This document shows positions 507-19,991 of a stretch of 64,000 bases of DNA, one piece after another (within the stretch, counting starts at the first letter, position 1; each line of letters begins with the position of its first letter). The stretch spans positions 1 to 64,000 of the forward strand of contig CAVWLW010000056.1 of NCBI GenBank assembly GCA_963755715.1, written 5' to 3'. This stretch comes from an uncultured delta proteobacterium. Lineage in GTDB: Bacteria > Desulfobacterota > Binatia > UBA9968. Under the pieces are notes generated by a model. It was not told the origin of the DNA, searched no databases, and saw only the letters and a list, made by a program, of their open reading frames with translations. The position numbers and the translations under genes are program-made.

Positions 507-606
507 CAGTTTTCCTTGTTGCTTTTGATCTAATTATTTATCCGACGTAGGTGTCATTGATTACGTCCCTGGGCCTTCGTGCCGAGACGTGCGATAGATC
601 CAAAGA

Positions 607-630
607 GGGCGCGATGAATCGCGCCCCTAC
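607..630 (-). repeat. REP palindrome, GTAG family (GTAGGGGCGCGATTCATCGCGCCC)
   Basis: gggcgcgatgaatcgcgcccctac directly upstream of RAYT; near-identical copies elsewhere in the window. Confidence 0.85.
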
Positions 631-632
631 CG

Positions 633-1221
633 ATGCAACGTATGAAATACGACGGTGAAAAACACAAAAGGCGGTCGGTTCGATTGTCTGGATACGATTA
701 CGCTCAATCGGGGGCGTACTTTGTGACCATCTGCACACAGAATCGGGCTTGTTTGTTCGGTACTGTAACAGACGGTAAAGTGCGGTTGAACGATGCCGGG
801 CGAATCATACAAAACATGTGGTCGGAGTTGCCGGGTCGATTTTCACAGATAGATGTAGATAGCTTCGTTGTTATGCCCAATCACATTCATGGCATTATCG
901 TGGTAGGGGCGCAATTTATTGCGCCCTCAAATTCGTTGCCTAGTATAGGTCGAAGACGCCGCCCGGGGCGCGATGAATCGCGCCCCTACAGTGGGAGAGA
1001 TCATACGCATGTACAAGGCTGTATCGGCGCGTGCAATTCGATCCACCATAAACGCGGATTTTAGATGGCAGCGCAATTACTACGAGCATATCGTTCGCAA
1101 TGAAGAGTCTTTGAATCGCATCCGGCAATACATCGTCGATAATCCGATCCGGTGGGATTCGGACCGAGATAATCCGGCGGTAATAACTCCCGAACCGAAA
1201 GATGCGTGGCAATTGCGATAG
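633..1221 (+). mobile_element. REP-associated tyrosine transposase (RAYT, Y1/IS200-like HUH), split by a frameshift at ~945-965
   Basis: Motifs RRSVRLSGYDY, YFVTICT, VVMPNHIHGI (HUH), WQRNYYEHIVR, YIVDNP across ORFs 633..1064 and 973..1221; flanked by GTAG REPs. Confidence 0.9.
903..989. repeat. Inverted pair of GTAG REPs inside the RAYT coding sequence
   Basis: gtaggggcgcaatttattgcgccc (903-926) and ggggcgcgatgaatcgcgcccctac (965-989); translated as VGAQFIAP and GAMNRAPT. Confidence 0.85.
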
Positions 1222-1246
1222 TCTATACGCTCAACGGGAAGAAAGA

Positions 1247-1269
1247 GGGCGCGATGCATCGCCCCCTAC
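1247..1269 (-). repeat. REP palindrome, GTAG family (variant)
   Basis: gggcgcgatgcatcgccccctac downstream of RAYT. Confidence 0.75.
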
Positions 1270-1276
1270 ACAGAAA

Positions 1277-2557: not shown

Positions 2558-2568
2558 AGGTGACTCCT

Positions 2569-2653
2569 AAGGCAATAGGCACAGGCAATAGTCGGAAACA
2601 CATTTCGGGCGCTTTGCTCCTACTAATGCCTATTGCCTGGTGCCTAATGCCTT
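2569..2653. repeat. Intergenic inverted repeat built from AGGCAAT-like units
   Basis: aaggcaataggcacaggcaatag ... ctattgcctggtgcctaatgcctt. Confidence 0.6.
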
Positions 2654-2655
2654 TT

Positions 2656-3936
2656 TCAGTAAACCATTGCTCTCATTCTCGATGCGCCCTGCTGATTGGT
2701 TACGCCGACGATGTTGGCGGCGTCGACCGTCATCGGCCCCGCGAGCAATTCAGTGAATTCCGCCGTCGCTGCGATGATCCGGTCGAGCCGCGGCACCTGC
2801 CATTTCGTGCCGTTGCCGCCGTTGTAGACGATCGCGTCGACTTCCGGGACGTTGAATAGCAGCGCCGACTCGACACGCCGGTCGCGCGAAACGTCAGACA
2901 CCATCACCGCCGTTCGTATTCCCATGTTTTCGAGCAAGCGCGCGGTTTCGGCAAGATCGGCGTGGGGCAAGCCACCGCCGTATTTTGACAACACCGCGCC
3001 GTCGGCTTGCAAGTTCCATTTGACGAGATTGGCAGCGGCACGGCAATGGCGGTCGCGATCGAAGTTGTCCGAACCGGCGATGGTCGCGACCGTCCCGACG
3101 AAATTTATTTCGCGCGCGTGATGGCGGCGGTAGAGATCGAGAATGATCGGATGATTTTGATAAAAATAGGTTTCCGTGCCGCCAAACCAGGAATGCAACG
3201 ACGGCACGACGGCGCCGTCGAGCCATTCATCGGGATGAAGCATGATCGGCAACATGCCATCGGTGTTGGCGCCGTAAAGAATCGGCTCGTCGACCTCCGG
3301 TTTGCGCTGGCGTGAAAAAATCTGTCCGACATAAGCGACGCGCGGCAGACCTTCTCGCGTCTTATCCGCGGGGCTCACGGGCTCGAAAGTTTCCACCGTT
3401 GCCGAGGGATGACTGAGCGCAAGCCGTGCTAGCGCGACAGCGACTTTAATGCCGGCCACGCGATAAACTTTTTCGATTGCTTGGCGCGCCAGTCCAGGTT
3501 TGGTGTGCGGGATCACCAGCAAGTGCATAAGCGCCGCGTAATCGCTCGCCGCTGCCGGCGCTCCGCTCATCTCCAACACCCGGCCGGTGGCACTGCGCGT
3601 CAGGTCAGGAGAAATTTCGGCTAAGACAGATACTGCGGCGCCCCGCAGAACATGTGTCGTTCCGATACCCGCGGTGGTCGCCGCTCCCAAAATGCCGGGA
3701 AAATCAGAACCGTTGCCGGGCGCTTTCGCGCGCGGTTCGATGACATCGAAGATCGGTCCGGCACGGCACGCTTCGCCGGGGCGAACGATGTCGAAATCGA
3801 TGCTGACGATGGAGTCGTCCTCGAGAAGCAGCGAACGCAGCACGGCCGGATCAACGGTCAAAACCGTCTCGTCGAGACGTGTCGGAGAACCGAACTGCAA
3901 ATCGGTGATTGGATGATCCGCCAAAGTTAGCTGCAT
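2656..3936 (-). CDS. grdE: Glycine/sarcosine/betaine reductase component B alpha/beta proprotein-like
   Basis: N-terminus ITDLQFGSPTRLDETVLTVD, IVRPGE, FDVIEPRAK, DFPG, GTTHVLRG, LHPDEWLDGAVV, TYFYQNHPII, directly upstream of grdB-like gene. Confidence 0.8.
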   Translation of the reverse strand: MQLTLADHPITDLQFGSPTRLDETVLTVDPAVLRSLLLEDDSIVSIDFDIVRPGEACRAGPIFDVIEPRAKAPGNGSDFPGILGAATTAGIGTTHVLRGAAVSVLAEISPDLTRSATGRVLEMSGAPAAASDYAALMHLLVIPHTKPGLARQAIEKVYRVAGIKVAVALARLALSHPSATVETFEPVSPADKTREGLPRVAYVGQIFSRQRKPEVDEPILYGANTDGMLPIMLHPDEWLDGAVVPSLHSWFGGTETYFYQNHPIILDLYRRHHAREINFVGTVATIAGSDNFDRDRHCRAAANLVKWNLQADGAVLSKYGGGLPHADLAETARLLENMGIRTAVMVSDVSRDRRVESALLFNVPEVDAIVYNGGNGTKWQVPRLDRIIAATAEFTELLAGPMTVDAANIVGVTNQQGASRMRAMVY

Positions 3937-4123
3937 GGATTCTTACTCTGGCTCGGCTACGCCGAGCAAAATCAATCGCCGCGACTGGCGGAATCTTATG
4001 CCTTGGCGCAGAAGCTTGTCAACGCGCGATAAAAGTAAGGTTGTGGGTTCATTTTCAATCCACCATGGGTCTTAACTCGAGAAGTATTCCTTGCCGGCCG
4101 GAACCACAACCAAATCAGCATTT

Positions 4124-4249
4124 GTCATCTCGAACCCTTCGGACAGACTCAGGGTAAACTCCGTGAGAGATCTTTCCCAAACGGAACCATCACCTAAATT
4201 GCTCCGAGGCTTTGAGAAAGAAAGATCCCTCACGTTCGTTCGGGATGAC
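4124..4249. repeat. Inverted pair of GTCATC...GATCT REP-like elements
   Basis: gtcatctcgaac...cgtgagagatcttt versus aaagatccctcacgttcgttcgggatgac; related copy at 44821-44847. Confidence 0.6.
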
Positions 4250-4387
4250 AAGAGCTTGCATGTGATTCAAAGCAGATGTTTATCGAGTGAAACCACGTAT
4301 GACCCCGTGCCCTGAGATTGGAGGGGTTCTGTATGTTTCTCATGAAGCTGAAAGAATGATAATGAACGCTTGCGGACGTATGAAGCC

Positions 4388-5872
4388 ATGAATCGCTTTT
4401 CACCAAATCCAAACTCGGCTCATTTGATTCATTGGACCGAGTCCGAAGACGACGCCTTTCGAAAAGCGCGCGAACAAGACCGGCCTATTATGCTTTTTTT
4501 GGCGGCGTTCTGGTGTCGCTACTGCCAGCGCATGGACGAGGGGGCGTTTTCCGACCGGGAAAACATGGCTTTGCTGAACGCCTATTTCATCGCGCTCCGA
4601 ATCGAAAACGCCAAGCGGCCCGACATCGACGCGCGCTATAATCTCAACGGCTGGCCGACGATCGCCTTTCTGACTCCCAACGGTAAACTTCTCGCGGCGG
4701 CCAATTATCTTCCCAGCGACGAGTTCAAAGAGTTTTTGCTTAACGTGTACATGGAGTACGAGCAACGGAAAGACGAGTTGCGAATAAGCGACACTACCGA
4801 AACCGCAGACGTGCCGGCGCTCCAGACCACTGAAAAAATTGCGCCGAGCGTCTCCAGTCTTCGACAGATTACGAATTCAATCTTAACGCTGGCTGATCGC
4901 GTGAACGGCGGCTATGGCAACGGGCAAAAATTCATTCACGCTGAAGCGAATGAATTCCTCCTTTCTTGTTATGAAGCGACCAAAGACTCGGCCTGCCTCG
5001 ATCACGCGCGCTTAACGCTGGAGCGGATGCGCGCAGGCCCGATCTATGATGAAAAAGAAGACGGCTACTTTCGCACGACGACCGGCGCCGACTGGACGCA
5101 GCCGCACCGGGAGAAGCTTTTGGCCGAGCAGGCTGGCTTGCTGGCCAATTGCCTGCGCCTGTTTCGTATCACGCAACGCCCCGATTATGCGCGTATGGCT
5201 GAAGAAATAATCGGATATCTGAATAAAAAACTCTTCGACCCTTCCAAGCCGGCATTCTTTGGCTGTGAAGATTTCCTGCGCCGGGACGAGAGCACGAGGA
5301 CCGACGAGTTCTTTACCATCATCGACGAATGCATCTACTGCGATGCCAATGCAGCGGCGATCGTCGCGTATTTGGATGCCGCGCGGATTTTGCATCGAGC
5401 GGATCTTAGAACGCAGGCGCTGGGTGTGCTTGAGTTTCTTTGGGATCGCTGCCGCAGCGCCGATGAAGGCATGTATCACTGCTTTGACGAGGGACCACGA
5501 GCGCCCGGATTGCTCATCGATCAGGCGCGCATGGGAATGGCGCTGGTGCAAGCGTTCCACGCAACCGGCAAAGCTGTTTTTCTCGAGCGCGCGAAGGAAC
5601 TGGCGAAGATTATCGTATTGCGACTCGCCAATTCAAAAGGCGGTTACTTCGATCGTGGGCAGAGCGAGCTGGCCTTTTTTGGCGCGCCTTTGACGTTGAT
5701 CGATCAAAACGGCGTCGCGGCTTCGTTCTTTCTCAGGCTCGCCGCAGCGAGCGGCGAGCCTGCATACCGCGATGCCGCGCTTCGGGCCTTGGGCGCCTTT
5801 AGCGGGGACTTCGCGGCTTACGGTATCGATGCGGCTCCGTACGGCCACGCGTTGAGTGAATTTTTCGCCTAA
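4388..5872 (+). CDS. Thioredoxin-domain protein, YyaL/DUF255 (SPATA20-like) family
   Basis: IHW..AFRKAREQDRPIML..FWCRYCQRMD, LNAYFI..RPDIDARY, GWPTIAFLTP, DW..PH.EKLL..QA, followed by an (alpha/alpha)6-like region. Confidence 0.8.
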   Translation: MNRFSPNPNSAHLIHWTESEDDAFRKAREQDRPIMLFLAAFWCRYCQRMDEGAFSDRENMALLNAYFIALRIENAKRPDIDARYNLNGWPTIAFLTPNGKLLAAANYLPSDEFKEFLLNVYMEYEQRKDELRISDTTETADVPALQTTEKIAPSVSSLRQITNSILTLADRVNGGYGNGQKFIHAEANEFLLSCYEATKDSACLDHARLTLERMRAGPIYDEKEDGYFRTTTGADWTQPHREKLLAEQAGLLANCLRLFRITQRPDYARMAEEIIGYLNKKLFDPSKPAFFGCEDFLRRDESTRTDEFFTIIDECIYCDANAAAIVAYLDAARILHRADLRTQALGVLEFLWDRCRSADEGMYHCFDEGPRAPGLLIDQARMGMALVQAFHATGKAVFLERAKELAKIIVLRLANSKGGYFDRGQSELAFFGAPLTLIDQNGVAASFFLRLAAASGEPAYRDAALRALGAFSGDFAAYGIDAAPYGHALSEFFA

Positions 5873-7570: not shown

Positions 7571-9610
7571 CTAGTGCACGTGATCGTCGGGGGCCGGTGC
7601 GCGGGGTTTTTCTTTGCGCAGGAGATCGACCTGCGCCATTAATAATTCGCTCTTTCGCCATGCGTCATTTTCCGCGGGCAGCCAGCGCGCCCGAATGTAG
7701 CCTTGCTTGTCGATCAGATATTCCACGTGGGGTGTATTTAAGACGGGGTTTTCATCGTTGAACGATCGGGCGAAGAGTTTATAGGTCTCGGTGATTTCCC
7801 GGCCGCCTTCACTGACGATGGCTCCAGGTAACTTGTCGGCGACGTAGAACTGATCGATGAGGTTGGGGATGATGATAATCTCGACGCCGGAGGATTGTAA
7901 TTGGGGCAGAATACGGTCGAGTTGCTTCAACCGTTCTTCAGTGTCCTGCAGATTGAGCATGACAAGCAGCACGATCTTGGTGCCGCGATGATCCTTGAGC
8001 GTTTTCGGTTCTCCGGCATTGGTCCCATAGGCAAAATCCGGCGCGACGAGCCACGGGTTATCGTCGATGATCGGCGCCAGCGCGCGGGCTCGCTCGCCGC
8101 TCGAGAGCGCGCGCAGGTAATTGATCAGGTCCCAGCGTTCTTCTTCGCTCAGGCTCGCGCTGAATCCCGGCATGGCGGATGATTGCTTGACGCCATAACT
8201 CAACCACCAAAAAAGATCGCCAGCAGTGTGCGCGTTGGCGTGGGGCGCAGTGAGATCGGCGGCTTTTGGATTTAGCTCCTGCCCGGCGGGGCCATCGCCG
8301 TAGCCGAGGGCGCCGTGACAAGCGACGCAACCGGTTTCTTCATAAAGTCCTTTGCCGTTGGCGACGGAGATCGCGTGGTACGCGACGGACGGTCGCTTGT
8401 AGGTCGCGGGGTAGGCGTCGATCGAGACCGCGGTATGAACAGCGTCGCCGCCATAGCCGAGCGCGCCCAAGCCGATTACCATCATCATCATGCGCCGACG
8501 TCGGCGCATGAGACCGGCGATCAGCGCGACGGCGCCGACCGCCATCCAAACCATGCCGCGTTCGACTTCAGCGCGCGCTTTGGGCGCCTTGTCGAGAATG
8601 CTCCAATCCCAACGGACAGAAAGCGGCCAGTCGGGCTGGACGTGGCGCGCCGGCGGCGTCACGTTCATGTGGCCGACGATCAACAGGATGAATAAGCCGA
8701 GCACGACTTCGATCATCACATTGCGAGTTAGTTGCTTTAGGTGATCGGTAGCTTCTCTAAGCTGAGTTGAGGGTGCCTCGAAAATGTTCGCCTTGAGCCG
8801 CAAACGATTGACGGCGGCGACAGCCAGCAAGGGAATCAGGAGGGCGATTTTTAGGAGCAACAAATTGCCATAATGCGTGCCGAGCAACGCTGCGAAACCA
8901 CCGACCAAGTTCCAAGCGTTGTAGGCGCCTGTGGCGATAAGAACTGCGACGCTGAAAACGCCGATGCGGGAAAAGCGTCGCGTCGCTTCTCTCGCAATCG
9001 CTAGCGCTGTGCTGTCATGGTCCCGATCACATTCTCGGAGTAGAACCGCGAGAGGAACGAGTCCGCCCAACCATATGCCGCTCGCCAACAGATGAAGCGC
9101 GTCGGCTGAAATCTGCATCGCCAAGGCTGCGCCCTCTGCTGTCGCGGCATGGCCCGAGAGTGATATTGAAATTAGCAAACACGCGCTCAAGCCGAAGCCG
9201 CCGGCGAGAACAAAAAACGAATCGTACCTAAGGCGATTTATTTCGGCGTGAAATAGAAGCGCCGGGAGCAAACTGAGCAGAACCATGCGCCCCAACCAGA
9301 CTTTTCCAAATTGTGTATCAGTCAGTAGAGATACAGGGTCAAGCCGATCGAAGAATGTCTGAGCTGTGGAATCGCTGACATTGATGACTTGGATACAGAG
9401 ACTGAGAACAGCAGACACGGAAAGCACGAATATGCTCCAGATTACGATCTGTCGGTGAAATCTTAGGTTTAGGATATCTCGACCATCGATTCCGATGCCG
9501 GCTTTTTCAACGGCGGAGCGAGCAATGAGCAAATTAAAAGCGAAGCTGCCGGTCAGGACCACAGCAGCTACGATCTGAACAAAGCGAACGACAGCCGATA
9601 GCTCAGTCAT
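7571..9610 (-). CDS. copD: CopD copper-transport domain fused to a cytochrome c domain and a C-terminal redoxin-like domain
   Basis: LSGHAA, DALHLLASGIWLGGL, RFSRIG, THYG.LLLLKIAL, PPARH; heme motif CVACHG with PKAADLT, AGDLFWWLSYG, MPGF; C-terminal APDF..TLKDHRG..EYLIDKQGYIRARW. Confidence 0.85.
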   Translation of the reverse strand: MTELSAVVRFVQIVAAVVLTGSFAFNLLIARSAVEKAGIGIDGRDILNLRFHRQIVIWSIFVLSVSAVLSLCIQVINVSDSTAQTFFDRLDPVSLLTDTQFGKVWLGRMVLLSLLPALLFHAEINRLRYDSFFVLAGGFGLSACLLISISLSGHAATAEGAALAMQISADALHLLASGIWLGGLVPLAVLLRECDRDHDSTALAIAREATRRFSRIGVFSVAVLIATGAYNAWNLVGGFAALLGTHYGNLLLLKIALLIPLLAVAAVNRLRLKANIFEAPSTQLREATDHLKQLTRNVMIEVVLGLFILLIVGHMNVTPPARHVQPDWPLSVRWDWSILDKAPKARAEVERGMVWMAVGAVALIAGLMRRRRRMMMMVIGLGALGYGGDAVHTAVSIDAYPATYKRPSVAYHAISVANGKGLYEETGCVACHGALGYGDGPAGQELNPKAADLTAPHANAHTAGDLFWWLSYGVKQSSAMPGFSASLSEEERWDLINYLRALSSGERARALAPIIDDNPWLVAPDFAYGTNAGEPKTLKDHRGTKIVLLVMLNLQDTEERLKQLDRILPQLQSSGVEIIIIPNLIDQFYVADKLPGAIVSEGGREITETYKLFARSFNDENPVLNTPHVEYLIDKQGYIRARWLPAENDAWRKSELLMAQVDLLRKEKPRAPAPDDHVH

Positions 9611-9966
9611 TGCTTGACGCTGAAGGGAAGCTGATCTTGAACGACATGGCCGTCGACGGACAGGACGCGATATTTGATCAGATAGCGTCCGGCGGGCAGA
9701 GTTTTGACCGACGCAGAGAGTTGCTTGGGATCGTCCCCGTTCACCTCGGCTTTGCCTATATCGACAGTTTTACCTTCAGCATCGCTCACGGTGAATGAAG
9801 AGTAGCGGGGTTCTAATCGCTCGTTGAACCAGAGTTGAATCTTTGCGGGCGCGCGAAAAAGCACCGCGCGTTGCGCAGGCACTGACTTGACGAGATAGGC
9901 GTGCGCGGAGACGGTCGATGGCGCAAGCAGCAAAATGATCAGCAGCGCGGCGCACGATCTAGACAT
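9607..9966 (-). CDS. copC: Copper resistance protein CopC
   Basis: Signal peptide then AHAYLVKSVP, LWFNERLE, YRVLSVDGH; start at 9966 overlaps upstream stop (TAATG). Confidence 0.9.
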   Translation of the reverse strand: MSRSCAALLIILLLAPSTVSAHAYLVKSVPAQRAVLFRAPAKIQLWFNERLEPRYSSFTVSDAEGKTVDIGKAEVNGDDPKQLSASVKTLPAGRYLIKYRVLSVDGHVVQDQLPFSVKQ

Positions 9967-10394
9967 TAGCGGCGGGTGGTTTCCAGCGGGTAGCCACGCT
10001 TGACCCAGCCGGCGTAGCCTTCCGGCATCACGAAGATATTGCGATAGCCGCGATATTCCAAAAACACGGCACGATCCGCAACATCGTACGGTTTGCAGTC
10101 GCAATAAAGCACCACTCGGCCGGACTTGGGAATCTCGTTGAAGCGGTTCGCCATTTCAGCGAGCGGGATCGAGCGCGCTCCTGGAATACGTTTTTCTTGA
10201 AACTCTTTGGCCGGTCTGAGATCGATGAACGTCAGCTTTTCGCCGGCGTCTATCAGCTGTTTCACTTTTTCCACCGGCAGCGTATCGACGGTATCTTCCA
10301 CGCCATGGCCGGCCAGTGCGACGGCAGGAGGGAAGACACCGAGCAGCAGCAAAATGACGAGCAGCTGGCGTTTAATTCTCCGGCCGCTTTTCAT
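9966..10394 (-). CDS. Exported rhodanese-like domain protein
   Basis: Signal peptide; FIDLRP.KEFQEKRIPGARSIP, VVLYCDC, EGYAGW...GYP. Confidence 0.85.
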   Translation of the reverse strand: MKSGRRIKRQLLVILLLLGVFPPAVALAGHGVEDTVDTLPVEKVKQLIDAGEKLTFIDLRPAKEFQEKRIPGARSIPLAEMANRFNEIPKSGRVVLYCDCKPYDVADRAVFLEYRGYRNIFVMPEGYAGWVKRGYPLETTRR

Positions 10395-11778
10395 ATTTTA
10401 TTGTCACGTTTTTATTGTCCGCTGTCCATTCCACGGTGCCTTTGGTACCGGGAGTGTGGCGCATGATCCAGAAACCGCCGCCAGGATCAGACGAGCTGGC
10501 GAAAACCAGACCGTTCTCATGGACGAACACGTCGTCGGCGTGACCGGCGTCAGAATTCACGCGACGAAAAACCGGCGGAACAAAATGGCCAACCGATTTC
10601 GGCCGATAGGGATCGGAGATATCGATTGCCCAAAACCCAGAATTTTCCCAGGCGCTGAAGACGATGTTTCCTTTGACCATGCGCTCGATGTCGTGAATAC
10701 CGAAGCGCCGCCCCGGCCGGTCGGGCGGGCAGAAGCGATTGAGCGGCAAGCGGAAAGTCCCGATCTGCACCGGATTCGGCTCATGACGCACGTCGATCAC
10801 GTGCAGGTAGCCGAACGGGCATTGTTTCGCCGAAGTAATTTCGTCGGTGGCGAGGATGACGTCCGGTCTGCCGCCGTGCTGCGGCACGACGATGCCGATG
10901 CTGTGCGTGTTGCCTTCTTCGGGCGGCGACCATTTGATCTGGCTGATTTTGGTCGGCTTGCGAATGTCGCTGATGTCGAGAATGATCACGCCCTGATCGC
11001 GATAGGCGAGATAAGCGCGGTCCTTGTAGGTCGTCATGTCGTGGAGCGAAACCCAGATCTTCGGCAAGCCGTCGCGCAAGCCGCCATCGTCGATCCAGTT
11101 CTCGCCGAGCTTTTCTCCGCCCGCGGTGTGCTGCCCGGGAAACCACCAGCGCGAGATTTCCTTCGGGTTCGCCGGATCGTTGATGTCGACGATCATCAAG
11201 ATCGCGCCGAAGTAACCCTGCAGGGTGGTCGCAATGAATGCGAACTTGCCTTGCTTCGGATCTTCGTGGAGCCAAAAGCCGTGCACGCCGCGGTTGGGAG
11301 CCACGTCGGTTTTAAAAAAGCCGACTTCCTTGGGCTTGGCCGGGTCGGAGACGTCGAAAAGACGAATCCCCGACGTCCACGTCTTGACGTCATCGGAGCG
11401 CACGCCCTCCTGGTTCACGACGAGCAGATTGCCCAGGACGTCAATATACTGGCTTTGCACGCTCTTGTCGTTTTTAATTTGCGAAACTACTCGCGGCCGC
11501 GCCGGGTCGCTGACATCGACGACGCTGAAGCCTTGATAGTTCGAGATGTAAGCGTGCTTGCCGTCTTTGCTGACGCGAAACTCGGCGGCTTGGTCCCATC
11601 CTTCGAGATCGCTGTAGGAGAGGATCGTGAAATTCTCCAGCTCGCCGTAGCTGGGCTGGCGCTCCTTGGCGCCGCCGAGGATGTTCGGACTTTGTCCAAA
11701 CGCGCTGGGAACCGCCGTCGCAATCGACAGCAGCAAGAATCCAATGCGCACACCTCGTGAAAAAAGCGTTGAGGTCAT
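10372..11778 (-). CDS. Secreted LVIVD-repeat beta-propeller protein
   Basis: Signal peptide; repeats FSVVDVSDPARP, LFDVSDPAKP, LMIVDINDPANP, IILDISDIRKP, LHVIDVRHEPNP, FWAIDISDPYRP. Confidence 0.85.
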   Translation of the reverse strand: MTSTLFSRGVRIGFLLLSIATAVPSAFGQSPNILGGAKERQPSYGELENFTILSYSDLEGWDQAAEFRVSKDGKHAYISNYQGFSVVDVSDPARPRVVSQIKNDKSVQSQYIDVLGNLLVVNQEGVRSDDVKTWTSGIRLFDVSDPAKPKEVGFFKTDVAPNRGVHGFWLHEDPKQGKFAFIATTLQGYFGAILMIVDINDPANPKEISRWWFPGQHTAGGEKLGENWIDDGGLRDGLPKIWVSLHDMTTYKDRAYLAYRDQGVIILDISDIRKPTKISQIKWSPPEEGNTHSIGIVVPQHGGRPDVILATDEITSAKQCPFGYLHVIDVRHEPNPVQIGTFRLPLNRFCPPDRPGRRFGIHDIERMVKGNIVFSAWENSGFWAIDISDPYRPKSVGHFVPPVFRRVNSDAGHADDVFVHENGLVFASSSDPGGGFWIMRHTPGTKGTVEWTADNKNVTIKYEKRPEN

Positions 11779-11987
11779 AGAGCACGTCCTCCTGAAGATT
11801 GATCACTTGAGCGGGGTTGGGTCATATCGAGCAGATGCTCACATACCGCTGCTGGGTTTAGCTGTCAACTAAGAAAGCGGCGGAGGTGGCACCTGGGCGC
11901 GCGGCGATTGTTAAATCGGCAAATTAGCCAGTGCCTCGCGCCGACAAAAATGGTACTTTTAGCGCGATTTGAATGAAGGAGGCGGCC

Positions 11988-13157
11988 ATGGCCTATAAGA
12001 TACGGACTCGCGACGAACATTTCCTCAACGATGGAACGCCCAAACGAATCTTGGCGCTCGATGGCGGCGGTCTGCGCGGCATTCTCACGCTGTCGTATCT
12101 CGCAGAAATCGAGTCGGTGCTGCGTGAACGGCACGGCGGCTCTCAAGATTTCCGATTGCATCACTACTTCGACCTGATTGCCGGAACCTCGACGGGCTCG
12201 ATTATTGCCGCGGCCTTGGCGCGCGGCATGGCGGTGGCGGACATCATCAAAAAGTACAACGACCTCGGTCAGCGGGTATTTCAAAAAAGCTGGTTGCGCC
12301 AAGGCTACGTCCGGGCGTTTTATGACGAGGCGGGGCTGATCAAAGAACTGAAGGATGTCTACGGCGCCGATACGACGATGGGCGATCCGTCGCTGCAGAC
12401 CGGTTTGTTGGTGATCACCAAGCGGCTCGATAGCGGGAGTGCGTGGCCGATCTCGAACAATCCGCGCGGCCGCTATTTCGGCGTGCGGCCGAACCAGAGC
12501 GTCGTGGCTAATTCCCAATATCCGTTGTGGCAAGTGGTGCGGGCTTCCACGGCGGCGCCGCGCTATTTCGATCCGGAAAGAATCGTGATCGCCCAGGGCA
12601 GCGGCGAACAGAAATCGGTGCAAGGCGAGTTCGTCGACGGCGGCGTCAGCCCGTTCAACAACCCCGCGCTCCAGGCCGTGATGTATGCGACTTTCGATGG
12701 CTACCGTATCGGGTGGTCGACGGGCGCCGACAAGCTGATGGTGGTTTCAATCGGCACCGGCAGCCGCGACCCGAAAACGGCGCCGGCTAGTCTAGCGATG
12801 GAAAATGCGTTGAAGGCTGTGATTTCTGTGATGGACGACTGCGCCGATCTGATGGAAATCGTGCTCCAATGGATGTCGAACAGTCACACCGCTCGCGTGA
12901 TCGATCGCGAGATGGGTGATCTGCGCCATGATTCGATCGCGCCGGCGCCACTGATTAATTATCTGCGTTACAATATCACTCTGAGCAAAGAATCATTGAC
13001 CCCTCTCGGCATCGATTTGCCGGACGCCAAATTCGAAAGCCTGAGCGCCATGGACGATCCCGCCAACATGCCAACGTTGCAAGATATCGGCGCGCGGGCG
13101 GCAAGGCAGCAAGTCCGCGGCGAGGATTTTTCGTCGAATTTCGATCTCACAAATTAG
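11988..13157 (+). CDS. Patatin-like phospholipase
   Basis: LALDGGGLRG oxyanion motif, GTSTG nucleophile elbow, ASTAAP, FVDGG catalytic Asp; AGGAGG RBS. Confidence 0.92.
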   Translation: MAYKIRTRDEHFLNDGTPKRILALDGGGLRGILTLSYLAEIESVLRERHGGSQDFRLHHYFDLIAGTSTGSIIAAALARGMAVADIIKKYNDLGQRVFQKSWLRQGYVRAFYDEAGLIKELKDVYGADTTMGDPSLQTGLLVITKRLDSGSAWPISNNPRGRYFGVRPNQSVVANSQYPLWQVVRASTAAPRYFDPERIVIAQGSGEQKSVQGEFVDGGVSPFNNPALQAVMYATFDGYRIGWSTGADKLMVVSIGTGSRDPKTAPASLAMENALKAVISVMDDCADLMEIVLQWMSNSHTARVIDREMGDLRHDSIAPAPLINYLRYNITLSKESLTPLGIDLPDAKFESLSAMDDPANMPTLQDIGARAARQQVRGEDFSSNFDLTN

Positions 13158-13238
13158 GCCCTTCAGGTGGATTAGGGGCCAGCATTTTGCGGCGTTGTTA
13201 AATGCCCAGGCCGAAGCCAAGCCGATGAGGTGCAGATC

Positions 13239-15236
13239 ATGAAAAGCGTTTTTATCGTTCGTCCATTCGGCACAAAAAGCGGCATCAATTTTGATCAGGT
13301 TGAAGAAGATCTCATTCGCCCGGCAATGGCGCAGGCCAACTTGACTGGCGGCACCACCGTCGAATTCATACAACAAGGCAACATTCGAGCCGACATGTTC
13401 GAGCAATTGCTTGTCGCCGATCTGGTGATTGCCGACATCTCGATCCACAATGCCAATGCATTTTACGAACTAGGCATCCGTCACGCGTTGCGCGATAAAC
13501 GGACGTTTCTTATCAAATCCAAACAAGCTACGCCGGGGGAACGTGATGCAAAGGATACTGATGTGCCGTTCGATCTGAAAACCGACCGTTATCTTGCCTA
13601 CGATCAAAATCAACTTGGTGGGGCTGTGGAGATTCTTGCCGCGGCGCTCAAACTCACTATGGATGCTCAAAGAGCCGACAGCCCGATTTATCAATTGCTG
13701 CCCGCGTTGAAGCCTGCTGATCCGGAGGACGTGCTAGTGGTGCCGCTCGACTTTAGCGAAGAGGTCGAACGCGTCGAAGCGGCGACAAATTGCGGTGATC
13801 TGCAATTGTTGGCCGCCGAGGTCGACGGCTTCGCCTGGCGAGTCGCCGGCTTGCGCATGATCGGCCACGCGCAGTTTCGCTTGAAGGACTGGACGGGCGC
13901 CAAGGTCACTTGGATCGCCGTCCGCGAGTATGGCGACATGGACGTTGAAGCCAACACGATGCTCGGGACGATCTTTCAACGCCTCGGCGATCTGGTCAGC
14001 TCGGATCAAGCCGTCGAGCGGGCGCTTCAGAACAATGGGATTTCTGCGAGCGGACGCGCCGAGATTCGTACGTTGATGGGACGAAACGCCAAAAATAGAT
14101 GGGAGCAGAGTTGGGCAAATTTGACGACAGTTGACGCGGCGCAAAAGGCGGCTCTGGCCTCGCAGTATTTGGAGAATTCTTTCGACCTTTGCCGCGCGGG
14201 TTTTATCGAAGACCGGAATCATTTTTACTCGGGCCTTAATGCGTTAGCGATGGTCACCATGCTGACAGAGCTGGCGCAGGCGCAGCCGCGGGGCTGGGAA
14301 GATAGCTTCGATACTGGAGAGGAGGCCGCGCAAAAGTTGCAAAAGCTCAAAGAATTGCGCAACGACCTCGCCGCGGGTGTGCGGCTGGCGATCGAGTCCA
14401 AGCAAACGGCCTTGCAACGCAGCGGCAAAAGCGACGTGTGGGTCGATATCAGCACCGCGGATCTCATTTGTTTGACCTCCACGCGACCGAATCGGGTCGC
14501 ACAGTCCTACAAGAAGGCGCTCACCGTCGCTTCGGATCAAGCGCGCGACGCCGTCCGGAGACAACTGCTGCTCTACCAGCGTCTCGGGATACTAAAGGAG
14601 AATATTCAAGCTGGCCTCGAAAGCATCGCGCCGGTGGCGGCGCAGGTCCAGGAAGCGCCGCCGCGGGTGATTTTGTTTACTGGCCACCGGATCGACGCGC
14701 CTGCTCGCCCGACGCCGCGCTTTCCGGCCGTCAAGGAAGAGCAGGCGCGCGCGATGATCCGCGATGCAGTCACGAACATCAAGGCCAAAACTGATGGCAA
14801 GCTACTGGGCATCTCCGGCGGCGCCGCCGGCGGCGATATTTTGTTTCACGAAGTCTGCGAAGAATTGAACATCCCGAGCCAAATGTATCTGGTGCTGCCG
14901 AGAAACGATTACATCAAGGCTTCGGTGGCGGACAGCGGGCCGGGTTGGGTGGAACGCTTCAATCGACTCTACGAAAAGCTCAAAGCCAAAGTCTTGTCCG
15001 ATTCAGATCGCTTGCCGCGCTGGTTGCGTGCTAAAAAAGACTACAGCATCTGGCAGCGTTCCAACCTCTGGATGCTGCATAATGCACTTTACATTTCGCA
15101 GGAGCATCTTACGCTGATGGCTTTGTGGAACGGCAGCAGCGGCGACGGTCCCGGCGGCACCGAGGATATGGTGAAGCGGGCGGTGGACCGTGGCGCCACT
15201 TTTATTCATCTCGATACCCGCAAACTGATCGAATAA
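13239..15236 (+). CDS. Multidomain protein: nucleoside deoxyribosyltransferase/deoxyribohydrolase-like (DUF4071-associated) N-terminus, TPR-like helical region, C-terminal SLOG-like domain
   Basis: VFIVRPFG, ADLVIADISIHNANAFYELGIRHALR, VPFD; helical middle with YSGLNALAM; VILFTGHRID, GISGGAAGGDILFHE, ALWNG..GDGPGGTEDMV. Confidence 0.75.
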   Translation: MKSVFIVRPFGTKSGINFDQVEEDLIRPAMAQANLTGGTTVEFIQQGNIRADMFEQLLVADLVIADISIHNANAFYELGIRHALRDKRTFLIKSKQATPGERDAKDTDVPFDLKTDRYLAYDQNQLGGAVEILAAALKLTMDAQRADSPIYQLLPALKPADPEDVLVVPLDFSEEVERVEAATNCGDLQLLAAEVDGFAWRVAGLRMIGHAQFRLKDWTGAKVTWIAVREYGDMDVEANTMLGTIFQRLGDLVSSDQAVERALQNNGISASGRAEIRTLMGRNAKNRWEQSWANLTTVDAAQKAALASQYLENSFDLCRAGFIEDRNHFYSGLNALAMVTMLTELAQAQPRGWEDSFDTGEEAAQKLQKLKELRNDLAAGVRLAIESKQTALQRSGKSDVWVDISTADLICLTSTRPNRVAQSYKKALTVASDQARDAVRRQLLLYQRLGILKENIQAGLESIAPVAAQVQEAPPRVILFTGHRIDAPARPTPRFPAVKEEQARAMIRDAVTNIKAKTDGKLLGISGGAAGGDILFHEVCEELNIPSQMYLVLPRNDYIKASVADSGPGWVERFNRLYEKLKAKVLSDSDRLPRWLRAKKDYSIWQRSNLWMLHNALYISQEHLTLMALWNGSSGDGPGGTEDMVKRAVDRGATFIHLDTRKLIE

Positions 15237-15265
15237 AAGGAAAGGATTTTCTCCTGAGGTCGACA

Positions 15266-16270
15266 ATGACGAATCCGGCTTATCGCGGTTCGGTTATAAA
15301 GATCATCTCTATTGCGCTCGCTTTCTGGTTGGTGTTGGCCGGAGGCGCCGCCGCCGCGCCGCTCGTCGTCGGTTATTCGGCGGTGACATCGGTGTTTTTG
15401 CCTTTTTGGATCGGCAAGGAAAATGGATTCTACAAGAAAGAAGGTCTCGATACCCAACTCGTGTACATCGCCAGTTCGACGACCATGGCGCAGGCGATGT
15501 TTGCGCGACAGGTAGCAATCTCGACGGTCAACAGCGGCAGTGTCGTCACCAGCACGTTACAGGGCGGCGATCTGGTGCTCATGGGCGCGGTCATGAACGC
15601 CGCGGCTTTTTACATCATGACTCGGCCGGAGATCGCCAACGTTCAGGATCTTAAAGGCAAGAAAATCGGGGTGACGCGATTGGGCTCGTCTTCCGACTTC
15701 GCGATTCGCGAGTATCTGCAGAAAAACAAACTGCAACCCAACCGCGACGTCAGCATTGTCCAGGTGGGCGGGATGCCTGAACTGGCCGCCGCATTGAACA
15801 ACGGTTCGATCAGCGCGGCGCCGCTGTCGTCGCCCAGTTCGCACATCGCTGAACAAAAGGGCAACAGAGTCATCGCCAATCTGGCCAACGAAGGAATTTA
15901 CTTTGTCATTGCCGGTCTGACGACGACGCGGCGGTTTCTGCGCGAGCAACGCAGCGACGCCAAGACGTTTCTGCGCGCGTTCGGACGGGCGACGCATTTC
16001 ATGTTTCAACAAAGAGACGAGGCGAAAAAGATTCTGACGAAATACGCCAAGATCGATGATCCCGCTATGCTCGAAGGCAGCTTGAAGTATGCCCACGACT
16101 TCACGGAAAAAATTCCGCTGGTGAAGCGGGAGGGCGTGCAGGTGGTGCTCGAACAAGAGGCCGCGAAAAATCCGCAAGCCAAAGAGTTCACCGCCGAGCG
16201 ATTTTACGATAACAGTTTGGTGCAAGAGCTGATCAACGAAGGATTCTACAAATCGCTCTGGGGCAAGTGA
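15266..16270 (+). CDS. ABC transporter substrate-binding protein (NMT1/SsuA/TauA-like)
   Basis: Signal peptide; GFYKKEGLD, DLKGKKIGVTRLGSSSD, DNSLVQELINEGF. Confidence 0.88.
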   Translation: MTNPAYRGSVIKIISIALAFWLVLAGGAAAAPLVVGYSAVTSVFLPFWIGKENGFYKKEGLDTQLVYIASSTTMAQAMFARQVAISTVNSGSVVTSTLQGGDLVLMGAVMNAAAFYIMTRPEIANVQDLKGKKIGVTRLGSSSDFAIREYLQKNKLQPNRDVSIVQVGGMPELAAALNNGSISAAPLSSPSSHIAEQKGNRVIANLANEGIYFVIAGLTTTRRFLREQRSDAKTFLRAFGRATHFMFQQRDEAKKILTKYAKIDDPAMLEGSLKYAHDFTEKIPLVKREGVQVVLEQEAAKNPQAKEFTAERFYDNSLVQELINEGFYKSLWGK

Positions 16271-16287
16271 AAGGGAGAGAAACCGCG

Positions 16288-17322
16288 ATGAACTACGCGC
16301 CGATCGATGCCGATGGACATGTGATGGAAACCGACGACGAGCTGCGCCGTTATCTGCCCGCGCCGTTTGAAGGACGGCGCGCGTTGACTGCGCTGTTCCC
16401 ATCGTTGGACGGCTGGCCGCGCAGCACGCGCAAGGCGCCTGACAATACGCCGTGTTTGCAAAAGTGGCGCATGTTTTTGGACGGCTCAGGCGTCGCCGGA
16501 TCGGTGCTCTATCCGACGATGGGATTGGCGATGGCGCACATCAAAGACGTAAAGTGGGCGGCGGTGATGGCGCGCTGCTACAACGATTATCTTTACGGCG
16601 AGTATCTCGAGAAGGAGCCGCGGCGTCTTTGGGGTGTCGCGCTGTTGCCCGTTCAAGACATCACGGCGGCGGCGGAAGAATTGGAACGCTGCGTCAAGGA
16701 TTTGAAAATGGTCGGCGGTGTTATCCCCGCGGCTGGTTTATCGAGAGGGCTCGGCCATCCGATGTACGATCCGCTCTATCAAACCGCGGTGCGTCTTAAT
16801 GTGCCGCTGGCGGTGCACGGCGGCTCGAGCGCGGGACTTGGCCTCGATCTCTACGATTCCTTCGTGAAGATCCTTGTGATGGAGCACGCCGTCGCGCAGC
16901 AGATTCACTTCACGAGCTATCTGCTCGATGGCGCGCCGGTGCGCTTTCCCGCATTAAAAATGGCGTTTCTCGAAGCCGGGGTCGGCTGGGTGCCGTATTT
17001 AATGGAGAGGCTGGACGAGAAATACGAAAAGCTGCCGCAGCAGGCGCCGCTGCTTTCGAAGGAACCAAGCTATTACGTCAAGAATCATCCGATTTATTTT
17101 TCCTGCGAGCTCGAAGAGAAAATCTTGCCCTACGTGCTCGGCCTCGGCCTGGAAAAAAAGATCATGTATCCATCGGACTATCCGCACGAGCGGCCGACAC
17201 TGGAAGAGTTCCTGGCTGACATTCCCCGCTTTCGCGCCCGAAAAGATCTGTCAGACGAAATTAAAAAGCTCATCCTGCGCGACAATTGCATCGATTTTTA
17301 TTCCTTAAAGCTTTCGAAGTAA
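16288..17322 (+). CDS. Amidohydrolase family protein (Amidohydro_2)
   Basis: IDADGHVME, VLYPT, YNDYL, AVHGG, FLEAGVGW, SDYPH. Confidence 0.9.
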   Translation: MNYAPIDADGHVMETDDELRRYLPAPFEGRRALTALFPSLDGWPRSTRKAPDNTPCLQKWRMFLDGSGVAGSVLYPTMGLAMAHIKDVKWAAVMARCYNDYLYGEYLEKEPRRLWGVALLPVQDITAAAEELERCVKDLKMVGGVIPAAGLSRGLGHPMYDPLYQTAVRLNVPLAVHGGSSAGLGLDLYDSFVKILVMEHAVAQQIHFTSYLLDGAPVRFPALKMAFLEAGVGWVPYLMERLDEKYEKLPQQAPLLSKEPSYYVKNHPIYFSCELEEKILPYVLGLGLEKKIMYPSDYPHERPTLEEFLADIPRFRARKDLSDEIKKLILRDNCIDFYSLKLSK

Positions 17323-17398
17323 CCGGACAGACCTTCGGCTTTCATCGCCCGGTCAGATCTGCGCGTCGGTAAACTCGTCTTTTATTTCTGTACGATGT

Positions 17399-17412
17399 GA
17401 GCGTGCACGCTC
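17399..17412. promoter_or_regulatory. Perfect 14-bp palindrome, candidate operator of the ABC operon
   Basis: GAGCGTGCACGCTC about 80 bp upstream of the ATPase start. Confidence 0.4.
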
Positions 17413-17491
17413 TAACAAAAATTTGACCGACTCTGGAGGGAACTCTTCAGAGCAGGTAAAGTAACCACGCGATGAGCCGAAAAGCCGTTCG

Positions 17492-18277
17492 ATGAATCTA
17501 GATTCGCATCCAGACAGAAGCAAATCGGGCGCCGCAGTTGTCGGCGAGGAGATTTCGCGCGCTTTTACCGGCACCGGCTTGGTGCTCGACCGGATCAGTT
17601 TCCAAATACGACCCGGTGAATTCGTCGCTTTGCTTGGCCCTTCCGGCTCCGGCAAGTCTTCTCTCTTGAGGCTGATCGCCGGACTCGATCGAGCGGATAC
17701 CGGACGGCTGGCGATCGAAACGATGGACGGCGCGCTTTCGCGCGGTTTTGTTTTTCAAGAGCCGACCTTGATGCCCTGGCGCACCGTGCTGCGCAACACC
17801 ACTTTGCCGTTGGAACTCGAGGGATGGTCACGCGACAGTGCGAAAGCGCGCGCTGAAGAAGAGTTGCGGCGCGTTCGCTTGGCGGAGTTTGGCGCGCGTT
17901 ATCCCCACGAGCTTTCCGGCGGTATGAAGATGCGCACCTCGGTGGCGCGGGCTTTGACGACGCGGCCGAACCTGCTGCTACTCGACGAGCCCTTCGCCGC
18001 CTTGGACGAGCCGACCCGCCACGGATTGCAAATGCAGCTGCGGGAAATTTGGACCGCGCTGCGCATGACCGTGCTGTTTGTCACCCATTCGGTCATGGAA
18101 GCGGTTTTTTTAGCGGATCGGATCATCGTCTTGTCGCACCGGCCGGCGCGGATTATTTTGGATGAATCCATCACATTGCCGCCGATACGATCCACGGCTC
18201 TGCGCACATCGATCGAGTATATGAATGAGGTCAGGCGAATCAGCGGCGCAGTGCCGGCCGTGGCAGAGGCGCTATGA
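17492..18277 (+). CDS. ABC transporter ATP-binding protein (NitT/TauT family)
   Basis: Walker A GPSGSGKS, LSGGM, LLLLDEPF, FVTH. Confidence 0.95.
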   Translation: MNLDSHPDRSKSGAAVVGEEISRAFTGTGLVLDRISFQIRPGEFVALLGPSGSGKSSLLRLIAGLDRADTGRLAIETMDGALSRGFVFQEPTLMPWRTVLRNTTLPLELEGWSRDSAKARAEEELRRVRLAEFGARYPHELSGGMKMRTSVARALTTRPNLLLLDEPFAALDEPTRHGLQMQLREIWTALRMTVLFVTHSVMEAVFLADRIIVLSHRPARIILDESITLPPIRSTALRTSIEYMNEVRRISGAVPAVAEAL

Positions 18278-19047
18278 CGTTCAGAGCGCGGATGGCGGCG
18301 TTTTTACCGCCCTTGCTGCCTTTGATTTTATCGATCTGTGTAGCCGAGACCGCGGTGCGTATGGCATGGGTTCCATCCTATTTGATTCCCGCGCCGAGCG
18401 AGGTTTTCCATTCTCTGCTGGACGATCGGCGCGAGCTTGCGCTGGCGGCATGGGAAACTCTCAGCTCGGCCCTGGTCGGTCTCCTGATCAGCTTTGCCGC
18501 AGGCACGGTATTCTCCGTGGCGCTCTCCTCGTCCGACTTGGCGCGCCGCGCCTTTTACCCCTACGCGGTTTTCTTTCAAACCGTACCGATTATTTCGATC
18601 GCGCCGCTGTTGGTGATTTGGTTCGGTTTCGGGCGGCCGACGGTCATCGCCTCCGCCGCCATCGTTTCAGTTTTTCCGATCATCGCCAGCACCTTGCTCG
18701 GCTTGAAATCCACGGAGCCGTCGTTGGTCGACCTTTTCAAGCTCTATTCGGCAACCGGCCGGCAAACGCTCTGGATGTTAAAAATCCCCTTCGCTCTGCC
18801 GCAAATTTTTTCCGGTTTGAGAATCGCCTCGGGGCTGGCCGTGGTCGGCGCCATCGTCGGCGAGTTTATCGGCGGCGGCGGTCTCGGCAGCGTGGTCGAC
18901 TCGGCGCGCACGCAGCAAAGGATCGACCGGGTTTTTGCGGCGGTGCTGATTTCTTCATTGCTCGGCATCGTACTTGTCGGCGCGGTCAATCTCGTTTCAT
19001 CTCTTTCATTGGGTTCATGGCATACTTCGGAAAGGAAATCTTCATGA
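18274..19047 (+). CDS. ABC transporter permease (NitT/TauT family)
   Basis: Hydrophobic; PAPSEV, QTVPIISIAPLLVIWFGFG, ALPQIFSGLRI, GAIVGEF. Confidence 0.93.
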   Translation: MTFRARMAAFLPPLLPLILSICVAETAVRMAWVPSYLIPAPSEVFHSLLDDRRELALAAWETLSSALVGLLISFAAGTVFSVALSSSDLARRAFYPYAVFFQTVPIISIAPLLVIWFGFGRPTVIASAAIVSVFPIIASTLLGLKSTEPSLVDLFKLYSATGRQTLWMLKIPFALPQIFSGLRIASGLAVVGAIVGEFIGGGGLGSVVDSARTQQRIDRVFAAVLISSLLGIVLVGAVNLVSSLSLGSWHTSERKSS

Positions 19048-19991
19048 GCATTGTCTTGTTTCTTCTTGCATCGATTCTGCTTGCATTCCCTGCCACGGCG
19101 GCGCAATCCGCGCCGGTCAATTTGCAGTTTGCGCTCAATTGGAAAGCCGAGCCGGAGTTCGGCGGCTTTTACGCTGCCAAGCTCTCAGGGTATTTCGAAA
19201 AACGCGGGCTCAACGTCGATATCACCGAAGGCGGCGCGGGCACCCCGGTCGTGCAAATGGTCGCCAACAGCAAAGTTCCTTTTGGCATCGCGGCGGGCGA
19301 CGAAGTGGCGATTGCGCAAGCGCGCGGCGCTGACGTGATCGCGCTATTTGCCGTCTACCAAATCAACCCGCAGGGAATCATGGTTCACCCGGAGCGGGGA
19401 TTCAAATCCATCGCCGACGTATTCAATTCGCCGGGAACCCTGGCGATCCAAAACGGCGCGCCGCATACGCTGTTTTTGCAAGCCAAGTTCGGCAAAGCCA
19501 AAGTAAAGCTGGTTCCATACCCAGGCGGGATTGCGACCTTCCTCACCGATTCCAACTACTCGCAACAATGCTTTGTGACCTCCGAGCCTTTGTTGGCGAA
19601 GAAAAAATCGGTTCCGGCAAAAAGTTTTTTGATTGCCGATGAGGGCTTCAAACCCTACGGCACCGTCGTCATCGCGCGCCGCCAGTATGTCGAGAAAAAC
19701 CAGAAGCAAACCCGCGATCTGATCGATGCTATTCGTGCAGGCTGGCAGGAATATCTGCGCGCGCCGGAAACCGCCAATGCCCGAATGGCAAAACTCAACC
19801 CGGCCATGGACGCTGAAACCATGAGGGAAGCCGCCGAAGTGCAAAAACCGTTTATCATCGCCGCCAACGCGCCAGCCCAGGAGCTGGGCAAAATGACGGT
19901 CGATCGTTGGACGACGTTGGTGGAGCAGCTTTATGATATCAAGTTGATCAAGACCAAACCGGCCGCAGAAAAACTTTATCAGAATTTCTGA
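19044..19991 (+). CDS. ABC transporter substrate-binding protein (NMT1/THI5-like)
   Basis: Start ATG 19044 overlaps permease stop; signal peptide; LNWKAEPEFGGFYAA, GLNVDI.EGG. Confidence 0.9.
   Translation: MSIVLFLLASILLAFPATAAQSAPVNLQFALNWKAEPEFGGFYAAKLSGYFEKRGLNVDITEGGAGTPVVQMVANSKVPFGIAAGDEVAIAQARGADVIALFAVYQINPQGIMVHPERGFKSIADVFNSPGTLAIQNGAPHTLFLQAKFGKAKVKLVPYPGGIATFLTDSNYSQQCFVTSEPLLAKKKSVPAKSFLIADEGFKPYGTVVIARRQYVEKNQKQTRDLIDAIRAGWQEYLRAPETANARMAKLNPAMDAETMREAAEVQKPFIIAANAPAQELGKMTVDRWTTLVEQLYDIKLIKTKPAAEKLYQNF

Follow-up and report, generated by a model that had tools for sequence, protein, structure and literature searches.

A 64,000-nucleotide stretch of DNA from an uncultured delta proteobacterium of the class Binatia (lineage UBA9968; contig CAVWLW010000056.1 of GenBank assembly GCA_963755715.1; hereafter the window) carries a two-gene locus that is probably a conflict or defence module. 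The locus encodes a patatin-like phospholipase and a 665-amino-acid protein (hereafter the large protein) with an N-terminal nucleoside deoxyribosyltransferase / N-(deoxy)ribohydrolase-like (DRHyd) domain, a helical TPR-S repeat region and a C-terminal SLOG domain. An earlier note on this DNA, made from the sequence alone, had proposed a candidate nucleotide-signalling anti-phage system that is not classical CBASS or Thoeris. We found that the DRHyd-TPR core has the architecture of ThsI of type VIII Thoeris and of the experimentally tested protein BcTpr. The locus is therefore not a new kind of system but a recurrent module of a known, and partly verified, conflict-system kind, and what sets it apart is that a YpsA-type SLOG domain is fused to the core, that a patatin fills the effector slot, and that operon and contig lack a TIR gene.

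Both open reading frames (ORFs) are present on the plus strand at the positions the earlier note had assigned to them, as a check of their translations confirmed, and the locus comprises the following features.

11975..11983, plus strand: Shine-Dalgarno-like AAGGAGG, 5–8 nucleotides 5′ of the patatin ATG at 11988, read from the sequence
11988..13157, plus strand: patatin-like phospholipase, 389 amino acids, likely start ATG 11988 (AAGGAGG before it)
13158..13238, plus strand: intergenic spacer of 81 bp, with GAGGTG ahead of ATG 13239
13239..15236, plus strand: large protein, 665 amino acids, likely start ATG 13239 (GAGGTG before it)
13239..13670, plus strand: N-terminal DRHyd domain of the large protein, from a fold match and a conserved site
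13677..14639, plus strand: helical TPR-S repeat region, residues ~150–470, from Pfam TPR-S and fold matches
14658..15236, plus strand: C-terminal YpsA-type SLOG domain, residues 477–668, from a domain model and fold matches

Patatin residues are counted from ATG 11988, and those of the large protein follow the 668-amino-acid ORF that opens at GTG 13230, so that numbering from ATG 13239 is lower by three. There is no terminator-like site in the 81-bp spacer, and the two genes are therefore likely to be carried on one transcript. GC content is level throughout the region.

The pairing of the two genes recurs in other genomes. We examined 84 loci related to that of the window, only five of which came from a scan of genome contigs, and 42 were assessable in having at least 1250 bp on both flanks. 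A patatin gene adjoins the large-protein homologue in 20 of these 42 loci (13 upstream on the same strand, one divergent, and six downstream on the same strand; gaps of 10–641 bp). Since the host genome contains only three patatin genes in 7.4 Mb, we estimate that adjacency by chance would be of the order of 0.1%; the two genes are not neighbours by coincidence. In a quick tree of 40 homologues (without L048, L050 and L078, whose alignments were too short) patatin-linked members fall in both halves, which requires at least six to eight gains or losses. Either half of the large protein can also be found with a patatin: a SLOG-only gene is directly followed by one (G102, at L008), as is a DRHyd-TPR gene without SLOG (L050). 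Among the 22 loci without a patatin, a SLATT_1 gene lies upstream in five (L074, L076, L083, L084 and L085) and a SLATT domain is fused in L037, while in L079 a 1612-amino-acid protein (151–4989) with DUF7379, CHAT/caspase and its own TPR-S lies directly upstream of the large-protein homologue, and L048, whose homologue lacks SLOG, has a papain-like peptidase as a neighbour. Relatives in the databases are fused to SLATT (P0173, P0186), TIR_2 (P0123), SIR2 with an ABC ATPase (P0181) or STAND NTPases (P0148, P0164, P0165). The effector slot beside the large protein is thus interchangeable, and these effectors and fusions bear out the conflict-system context that the earlier note had suspected. 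We note that in the three STAND relatives (1196–1457 amino acids) the entire three-domain module is preceded by a P-loop domain of the ParA/CbiA kind together with a STAND NTPase (nSTAND1 or NB-ARC), and that a preprint from 2026 about immune ParA-like NTPases mentions DrHyd effectors.

The family to which the large protein belongs gave 2766 matches at E ≤1e-3 among 8000 scored candidates, and a library clustered at 50% identity yielded 7166, 1858 and 530 representatives at E 1e-3, 1e-10 and 1e-30, respectively. Close relatives carry the name Candidatus Binatia. The distribution of the family is patchy, and a search of 400 further genomes drawn from the same phylum found no full-length homologue. 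No plasmid or phage record covers at least 80% of the large protein, the matches there being DRHyd+TPR cores, SLOG-only genes or DRHyd-only genes. DRHyd-only homologues, annotated as hypothetical, occur in 22 phage records (temperate phages of Staphylococcus and Streptococcus, e.g. SA13 and Javan37), in which they align with residues 4–126 at 31–34% identity. With 530 clusters at 50% identity and E ≤1e-30, this is a large family, and it occurs in soil and sediment lineages that are poorly covered by defence catalogues; a single verified member would therefore annotate many genes.

The patatin is catalytically intact as judged by its motifs, in agreement with the earlier note. Its translation contains DGGGLRG, GTSTG and DGG, which provide the oxyanion stretch D25-G-G-G..G31, the nucleophile S68 (in GTSTG) and D217 (in DGG), and an alignment of the 26 patatins that adjoin large-protein homologues shows DGGG, GTSTG and DGG to be invariant in all of them. 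The protein scores 86.8 bits against Pfam Patatin PF01734 (cut-off 27.7; E 2.8e-24) and so combines the Pfam domain with the motifs G-G-G-x-[RK]-G, G-x-S-x-G and D-G-[GA] that define patatin-like phospholipases. An extension C-terminal to the Pfam domain is likewise conserved among the 26 partner patatins, which, given this region and the shared invariant motifs, appear to form one subfamily. The closest matches are lipase effectors of the cyclic oligonucleotide-based antiphage signalling systems (CBASS): the top PADLOC match is the CBASS-type phospholipase effector PDLC00758 (1.6e-46), and the best NCBIfam match is CBASS_lipase NF041079. The patatin resembles the CBASS effector CapV in these matches and in its intact Ser-Asp dyad, but differs from it in scoring 117.6 bits, below the 200-bit equivalog cut-off of NF041079, in having its own conserved C-terminal region, and in the lack of a CD-NTase, for which a search with SMODS (PF18144) returned no match in the host genome (93.6% complete).

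That other systems use patatins as secreted toxins is the sole point in favour of the view that this one is an interbacterial or host-directed toxin (ExoU/Tle-like) with the large protein as its regulator or immunity factor. We consider that view very improbable, since no secretion-system genes flank the pair, the patatin family aligns from residue 1 without a conserved leader, and the alternative partners at related loci are inner-membrane SLATT proteins and cytoplasmic enzymes.

The large protein contains the motifs VIADISIHNANAFYELGIRHA, FTGHR, GGAAGGD and WNGSSGDGPGGT in its translation, and a Pfam search identified TPR-S (PF20308) as its sole family (34 bits against a cut-off of 27.6; residues 237–341). 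The same family scored 38.9 bits in a genome-wide search, in which this was the only TPR-S gene. An AlphaFold model built on an alignment of 52 sequences had a predicted local distance difference test (pLDDT) value of 90.7 and a predicted template modelling (pTM) score of 0.85. A Foldseek search with the whole chain was swamped by generic TPR proteins, and we therefore compared structures domain by domain. These comparisons upheld the three domain calls of the earlier note (NDT-like, TPR-like and SLOG-like). Specifically, the N-terminal domain (residues 2–144) superimposes on human DNPH1 with a Z-score of 13.0 (root-mean-square deviation (rmsd) 2.5 Å over 127 residues) and on MilB with a Z-score of 11.9. 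When a profile of the domain was compared with PDB sequences, its YELG aligned with the catalytic YELG of DNPH1 (E 0.19), ASK1 followed at E 1.1, and ten of the 14 sequences listed were DNPH1/Rcl; these profile matches to DNPH1 and ASK1 (E 0.19–1.6) are weak alone, and we use them only jointly with the fold match. The site residues D69, N74, N76 and E80 lie within ..ADISIHNANAFYELG.., and in alignments of 52 and 39 sequences D69, E80 and G82 do not vary, and conservation of N74 and N76 reaches at least 90%. With such a fold and site, the domain may be an N-glycosidase acting on nicotinamide adenine dinucleotide (NAD+) or nucleotides. A second DRHyd-like domain, with ..ADITGRNPNVLYELG.., is encoded in the same genome (L007, contig C54, ~35.1 kb, ORF 184–1833), where it is C-terminal in a 549-amino-acid protein whose N-terminal ~350 residues resemble multiple membrane helices; no TPR-S or patatin gene lies beside it in the 3.2 kb seen.

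The helical region and the N-terminal domain together recall the regulatory part of animal ASK1 (MAP3K5), a likeness that the earlier note had proposed. Residues 171–473 match the ASK1 central regulatory region (5ulm; Z-score 14.7 over 244 residues) about as well as they match RapI (Z-score 14.9), Z-scores near 13–15 only modestly exceeding background for helical repeats, and the ASK1 structure 8qgy aligns across residues 9–472 (Z-score 12.3 over 378 residues). The order of a Rossmannoid domain followed by TPRs is shared, and relatives of the large protein match Pfam MAP3K_TRAF_bd. In contrast to ASK1, the large protein is bacterial, lacks a PH domain and has no kinase family in the Pfam search, its C-terminus being the SLOG domain; its N-terminal domain keeps the catalytic Glu, and the rmsd for both domains together is 10.6 Å. 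A verified member of the family would offer a tractable bacterial model for the switching of ASK1-type Rossmannoid-plus-TPR modules.

The fold of the C-terminal domain is closest to that of Bacillus subtilis YpsA. A model of this part (pLDDT 92.6, from an alignment of 47 sequences) matches YpsA 2nx2 with a Z-score of 17.7 (rmsd 3.0 Å over 158 of 178 residues, 11% identity), 2nx2 is also the best Foldseek match (E 1.4e-4), and further fold matches are to DprA (Z-score 12.1), ShosA (11.8), LOG (10.0), the TRPM2 N-domain (8.9) and the SLOG domain of ThsA (7uxs; 7.4). Residues conserved in the domain include G485-H486, G534, D536, E541, W614, W633 and G642-G643. Sequence-level support for SLOG is weak: a profile of the domain found only chance-level matches among PDB sequences, and Pfam YAcAr matches five of 47 family members (best E 0.027), the domain of the window itself having no match, and Atlas gave leads only (scores 0.92 and 0.86). 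By its fold, the domain is a SLOG of YpsA type. YpsA itself differs from the large protein in being a stand-alone, cell-division-linked protein.

Comparison with known systems places these features in context. In type VIII Thoeris the ThsB TIR makes canonical cyclic ADP-ribose (cADPR), and the verified effector that responds to it is ThsI, described as 'CMP hydrolase + TPR', such that a core of the DRHyd-TPR type is there the receiver of the signal and not its maker (Yirmiya et al. 2025, bioRxiv 10.64898/2025.12.03.692087). According to the same preprint, the TPR of ThsI had been predicted earlier by Aravind and colleagues. The large protein resembles ThsI in having a MilB/DNPH1-type N-glycosidase domain and then TPRs, a likeness of architecture only; in addition, its relatives share operons with TIR genes and have SLATT (ThsH-type) proteins as alternative or additional partners. 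The locus differs from type VIII Thoeris in the extra C-terminal SLOG domain, in having a patatin as the partner, and in that both operon and contig are without a TIR gene. Yirmiya et al. do not use the word 'patatin' in their text, and they list 'phospholipases' only among unverified putative effectors. We note that a locus on Rhizobium sophoriradicis plasmid pCC511_4 (L091, 1209–7112) has the order TIR / carbohydrate kinase / DRHyd-TPR / DUF4231 / TIR and adjoins genes for a 7-cyano-7-deazaguanine synthase and an HhH-GPD glycosylase; its DRHyd-TPR protein, of 447 amino acids, is annotated 'TRAFs-binding domain-containing protein', and the locus resembles the Thoeris operons combining ThsH and ThsI to which Yirmiya et al. 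refer.

DRHyd+TPR-S cores were predicted to be hubs of conflict systems by Burroughs and Aravind (2020, J Bacteriol), as reported in papers that cite them, and their catalogue, as summarized in bioRxiv 10.1101/2023.05.26.542521, comprises 78 operons, including 29 with Tpr alone, 28 Tir-Tpr, five YspA(SLOG)-Tpr and four Patatin-Tpr. The latter preprint describes BcTir/Tpr, a TIR plus glycosidase-TPR pair that defends, in which N82 and E86 of BcTpr are needed for NAD+ loss, formation of a cADPR isomer and defence. The large protein shares with these systems an N-terminal glycosidase with N..N...E followed by TPRs, and the N-x-N-x-x-x-E spacing of its DRHyd site equals that of the mutated N82/E86 in BcTpr; it also has TPR-S above the gathering score, a DRHyd domain with a conserved catalytic Glu, and linkage, across its family, to variable TIR, SLOG, patatin, SLATT and caspase components. 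Whereas the tested system consists of TIR and Tpr only, the patatin plus DRHyd-TPR-S-SLOG form is known here from sequence. Literature searches for that form found no experimental study, and its exact architecture may already be listed in the 2020 or 2015 papers from the Aravind group or in supplementary tables. In type I Thoeris the SLOG domain of ThsA binds 3′cADPR and turns on the fused enzyme (bioRxiv 10.64898/2025.12.03.692087). The SLOG domain here is of the same superfamily but much nearer YpsA than ThsA, is fused to DRHyd-TPR rather than to SIR2 (no SIR2 family was reported for the large protein in Pfam at E up to 1), and is not accompanied by ThsB.

What we observe is the order of the genes, the folds, catalytic motifs that are intact, a linkage that recurs and an effector slot that is interchangeable; each functional step that follows, the nature of the signal and the role in defence are inferred. 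The 665-residue protein would be the hub of a two-gene operon, its TPR-S repeats keeping it off and perceiving a trigger, perhaps some phage product or small ligand. The DRHyd domain, with its complete N-x-N-x-x-x-E site, would then cut the N-glycosidic bond of NAD+ or of a nucleotide, giving an ADP-ribose-type signal and/or depleting the substrate, and the fused YpsA-type SLOG domain would bind this nucleotide ligand and turn binding into activation. The patatin, with its intact Ser-Asp dyad, would thereupon degrade membrane phospholipid, leaving the infected cell killed or arrested. These steps keep to the roles suggested in the earlier note, in which the TPRs may sense an invader, the DRHyd and SLOG domains make or bind a signal, and the patatin kill. 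A TIR enzyme would not be required in this operon, which is why we propose that the hub may be self-contained. That the pair is a self-contained Thoeris-like abortive-infection module, with a signal derived from NAD or a nucleotide and a lipase as effector, is in our view quite possible, if somewhat short of probable. Its most specific form, a TIR-free circuit in which the triggered DRHyd domain, and not a TIR, makes an NAD-derived messenger that the fused SLOG domain reads in cis or in an oligomer before the patatin kills, we put forward only tentatively. If it were true, this would be the first immune pathway with a DRHyd domain as signal generator and a lipase output, and the N-terminal module of animal ASK1 would gain a working model in prokaryotes. 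More generally, should the pair confer protection with no TIR gene, a DRHyd or SLOG domain, and not TIR alone, could start NAD-derived immune signalling, and a lipase output would be added to the Thoeris family.

The distribution of TIR genes bears directly on this proposal. We scanned 127 further flank ORFs of 180–666 amino acids at 28 loci (15 longer ORFs were left out) and found TIR_2 to be the commonest further neighbour, with eight of the 127 ORFs, all eight of which were confirmed, as against at most two for any other family. TIR genes are present at seven of the 28 loci, and at three they lie in the operon, in the orders TIR, large protein, patatin (L055), patatin, large protein, TIR (L042), and large protein, SIR2, TIR (L041). 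The other 21 loci have no TIR among the scanned flank ORFs, and this majority is consistent with a self-contained hub. A search of the host genome found nine TIR_2 genes, two of which also match ThsB_TIR, all on contigs other than that of the window. The earlier note had stated that no CD-NTase or TIR gene is present: the absence of SMODS extends to the genome and that of TIR to the contig, but TIR genes do exist elsewhere in the genome. Its statement that the system is not classical CBASS or Thoeris holds for the gene content of this operon only, given the seven related loci with a TIR.

These counts also bring into play the possibility that the large protein, like ThsI, and perhaps the patatin as well, receives a cADPR-type signal from a TIR encoded elsewhere, with the SLOG or TPR region sensing it, the DRHyd domain depleting nucleotide or NAD, and the patatin serving as a second effector. 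Type VIII Thoeris works in this manner (bioRxiv 10.64898/2025.12.03.692087), and the TIR neighbours and in-operon TIR genes of related loci, the relative with a fused TIR (P0123), and the nine TIR_2 genes of the genome all fit such an arrangement. On the other hand, TIR is missing from the operon, from the contig and from the scanned flanks of three quarters of the loci, and signalling systems are normally encoded as a single unit. The genome TIRs, considered as orthologues of the locus-linked TIRs, were rejected, as the likeness is confined to the TIR domain, at 34–41% identity. We regard a TIR acting in trans as somewhat unlikely; were one needed, the locus would simply be a two-effector relative of type VIII Thoeris.

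Another reading has no second messenger. The large protein might instead be a directly triggered NADase or nucleotide hydrolase in which TPR-S senses a phage protein, DRHyd is toxic and SLOG is allosteric or oligomerizing, with the patatin switched on by contact in a complex. In favour of this, the BcTir and BcTpr proteins reportedly work in a complex, with BcTprN depleting NAD+ by itself (bioRxiv 10.1101/2023.05.26.542521), Iyer et al. (2022) regard DrHyd domains as the equivalent of TIR among NADase effectors, and the two genes are tightly coupled. Nevertheless, the patatin is nearest to the ligand-activated CBASS lipases, each half of the hub is found with a patatin in the absence of the other (L008 and L050), which is easier to explain with a diffusible ligand, and the SLATT partners are, by Pfam family name, tied to nucleotide-signal modules. 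We therefore think this mechanism unlikely. TIR, DrHyd and SLOG are assigned to one Rossmannoid clade whose members can act as signal makers, sensors or NADases (Iyer et al. 2022). A complex prediction with the patatin and residues 150–668 of the large protein returned a score of 0.00, a 'no answer' that speaks neither for nor against binding.

Several observations weigh against an immune module that is complete in itself. The window is not a defence island: the flanking genes encode thioredoxin-like, solute-binding, CopC/CopD, rhodanese, LVIVD, NMT1-type binding, amidohydrolase and ABC transporter proteins, metabolic and transport families unrelated to the pair, as the earlier note had recognized. 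In close relatives (72–91% identity) the pair holds the same broad chromosomal position, a pattern closer to stable inheritance than to the behaviour of a mobile defence cassette. No recognizable effector partner is present in 14 of the 42 assessable loci; the related loci are metagenome contigs chosen by similarity and hence not independent samples; and PADLOC v2 contains no model for the large protein other than a TIR effector that it matches weakly (17.2 bits). Moreover, the only verified relatives, BcTir/Tpr and type VIII Thoeris, use the core together with a TIR gene, and with nine TIR genes elsewhere in the genome a signal may be made in trans. PADLOC matches among the 127 flank ORFs of related loci were scattered (mad2, IetA, helicase models, Aga_TIR) and, there being no control set, support no claim of defence-island enrichment.

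The kept position and the metabolic and transport surroundings would also suit a pair with no part in immunity, namely one that adjusts the turnover of membrane lipids in response to stress or nutrients, retained in this lineage as ordinary chromosomal genes, with the DRHyd and SLOG domains sensing nucleotides. ASK1 is itself a eukaryotic stress-signalling scaffold. We nonetheless judge such a role to be distinctly unlikely, because relatives are partnered with or fused to effectors of death or defence (SLATT, TIR, SIR2, caspase, STAND), the distribution is patchy, and two studies found phage protection by homologous cores (bioRxiv 10.1101/2023.05.26.542521; bioRxiv 10.64898/2025.12.03.692087). 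A defence module is the reading we favour for the pair.

While the patatin pair stays in place, the gene clusters on either side of it come and go, and the region therefore varies by gain and loss of cassettes. The copper-resistance cluster at ~8045–11985 (CopD-cytochrome c, CopC, rhodanese, LVIVD) is missing in one close relative (L009), and the NMT1/amidohydrolase/ABC cluster at 15125–19991 is missing in two others (L005 and L057). Within the latter cluster, the ABC-transporter ATPase at 17492–18277 gives a sub-threshold Pfam match to nSTAND1 (26.6 bits against a cut-off of 27.1), which is almost certainly generic P-loop similarity.

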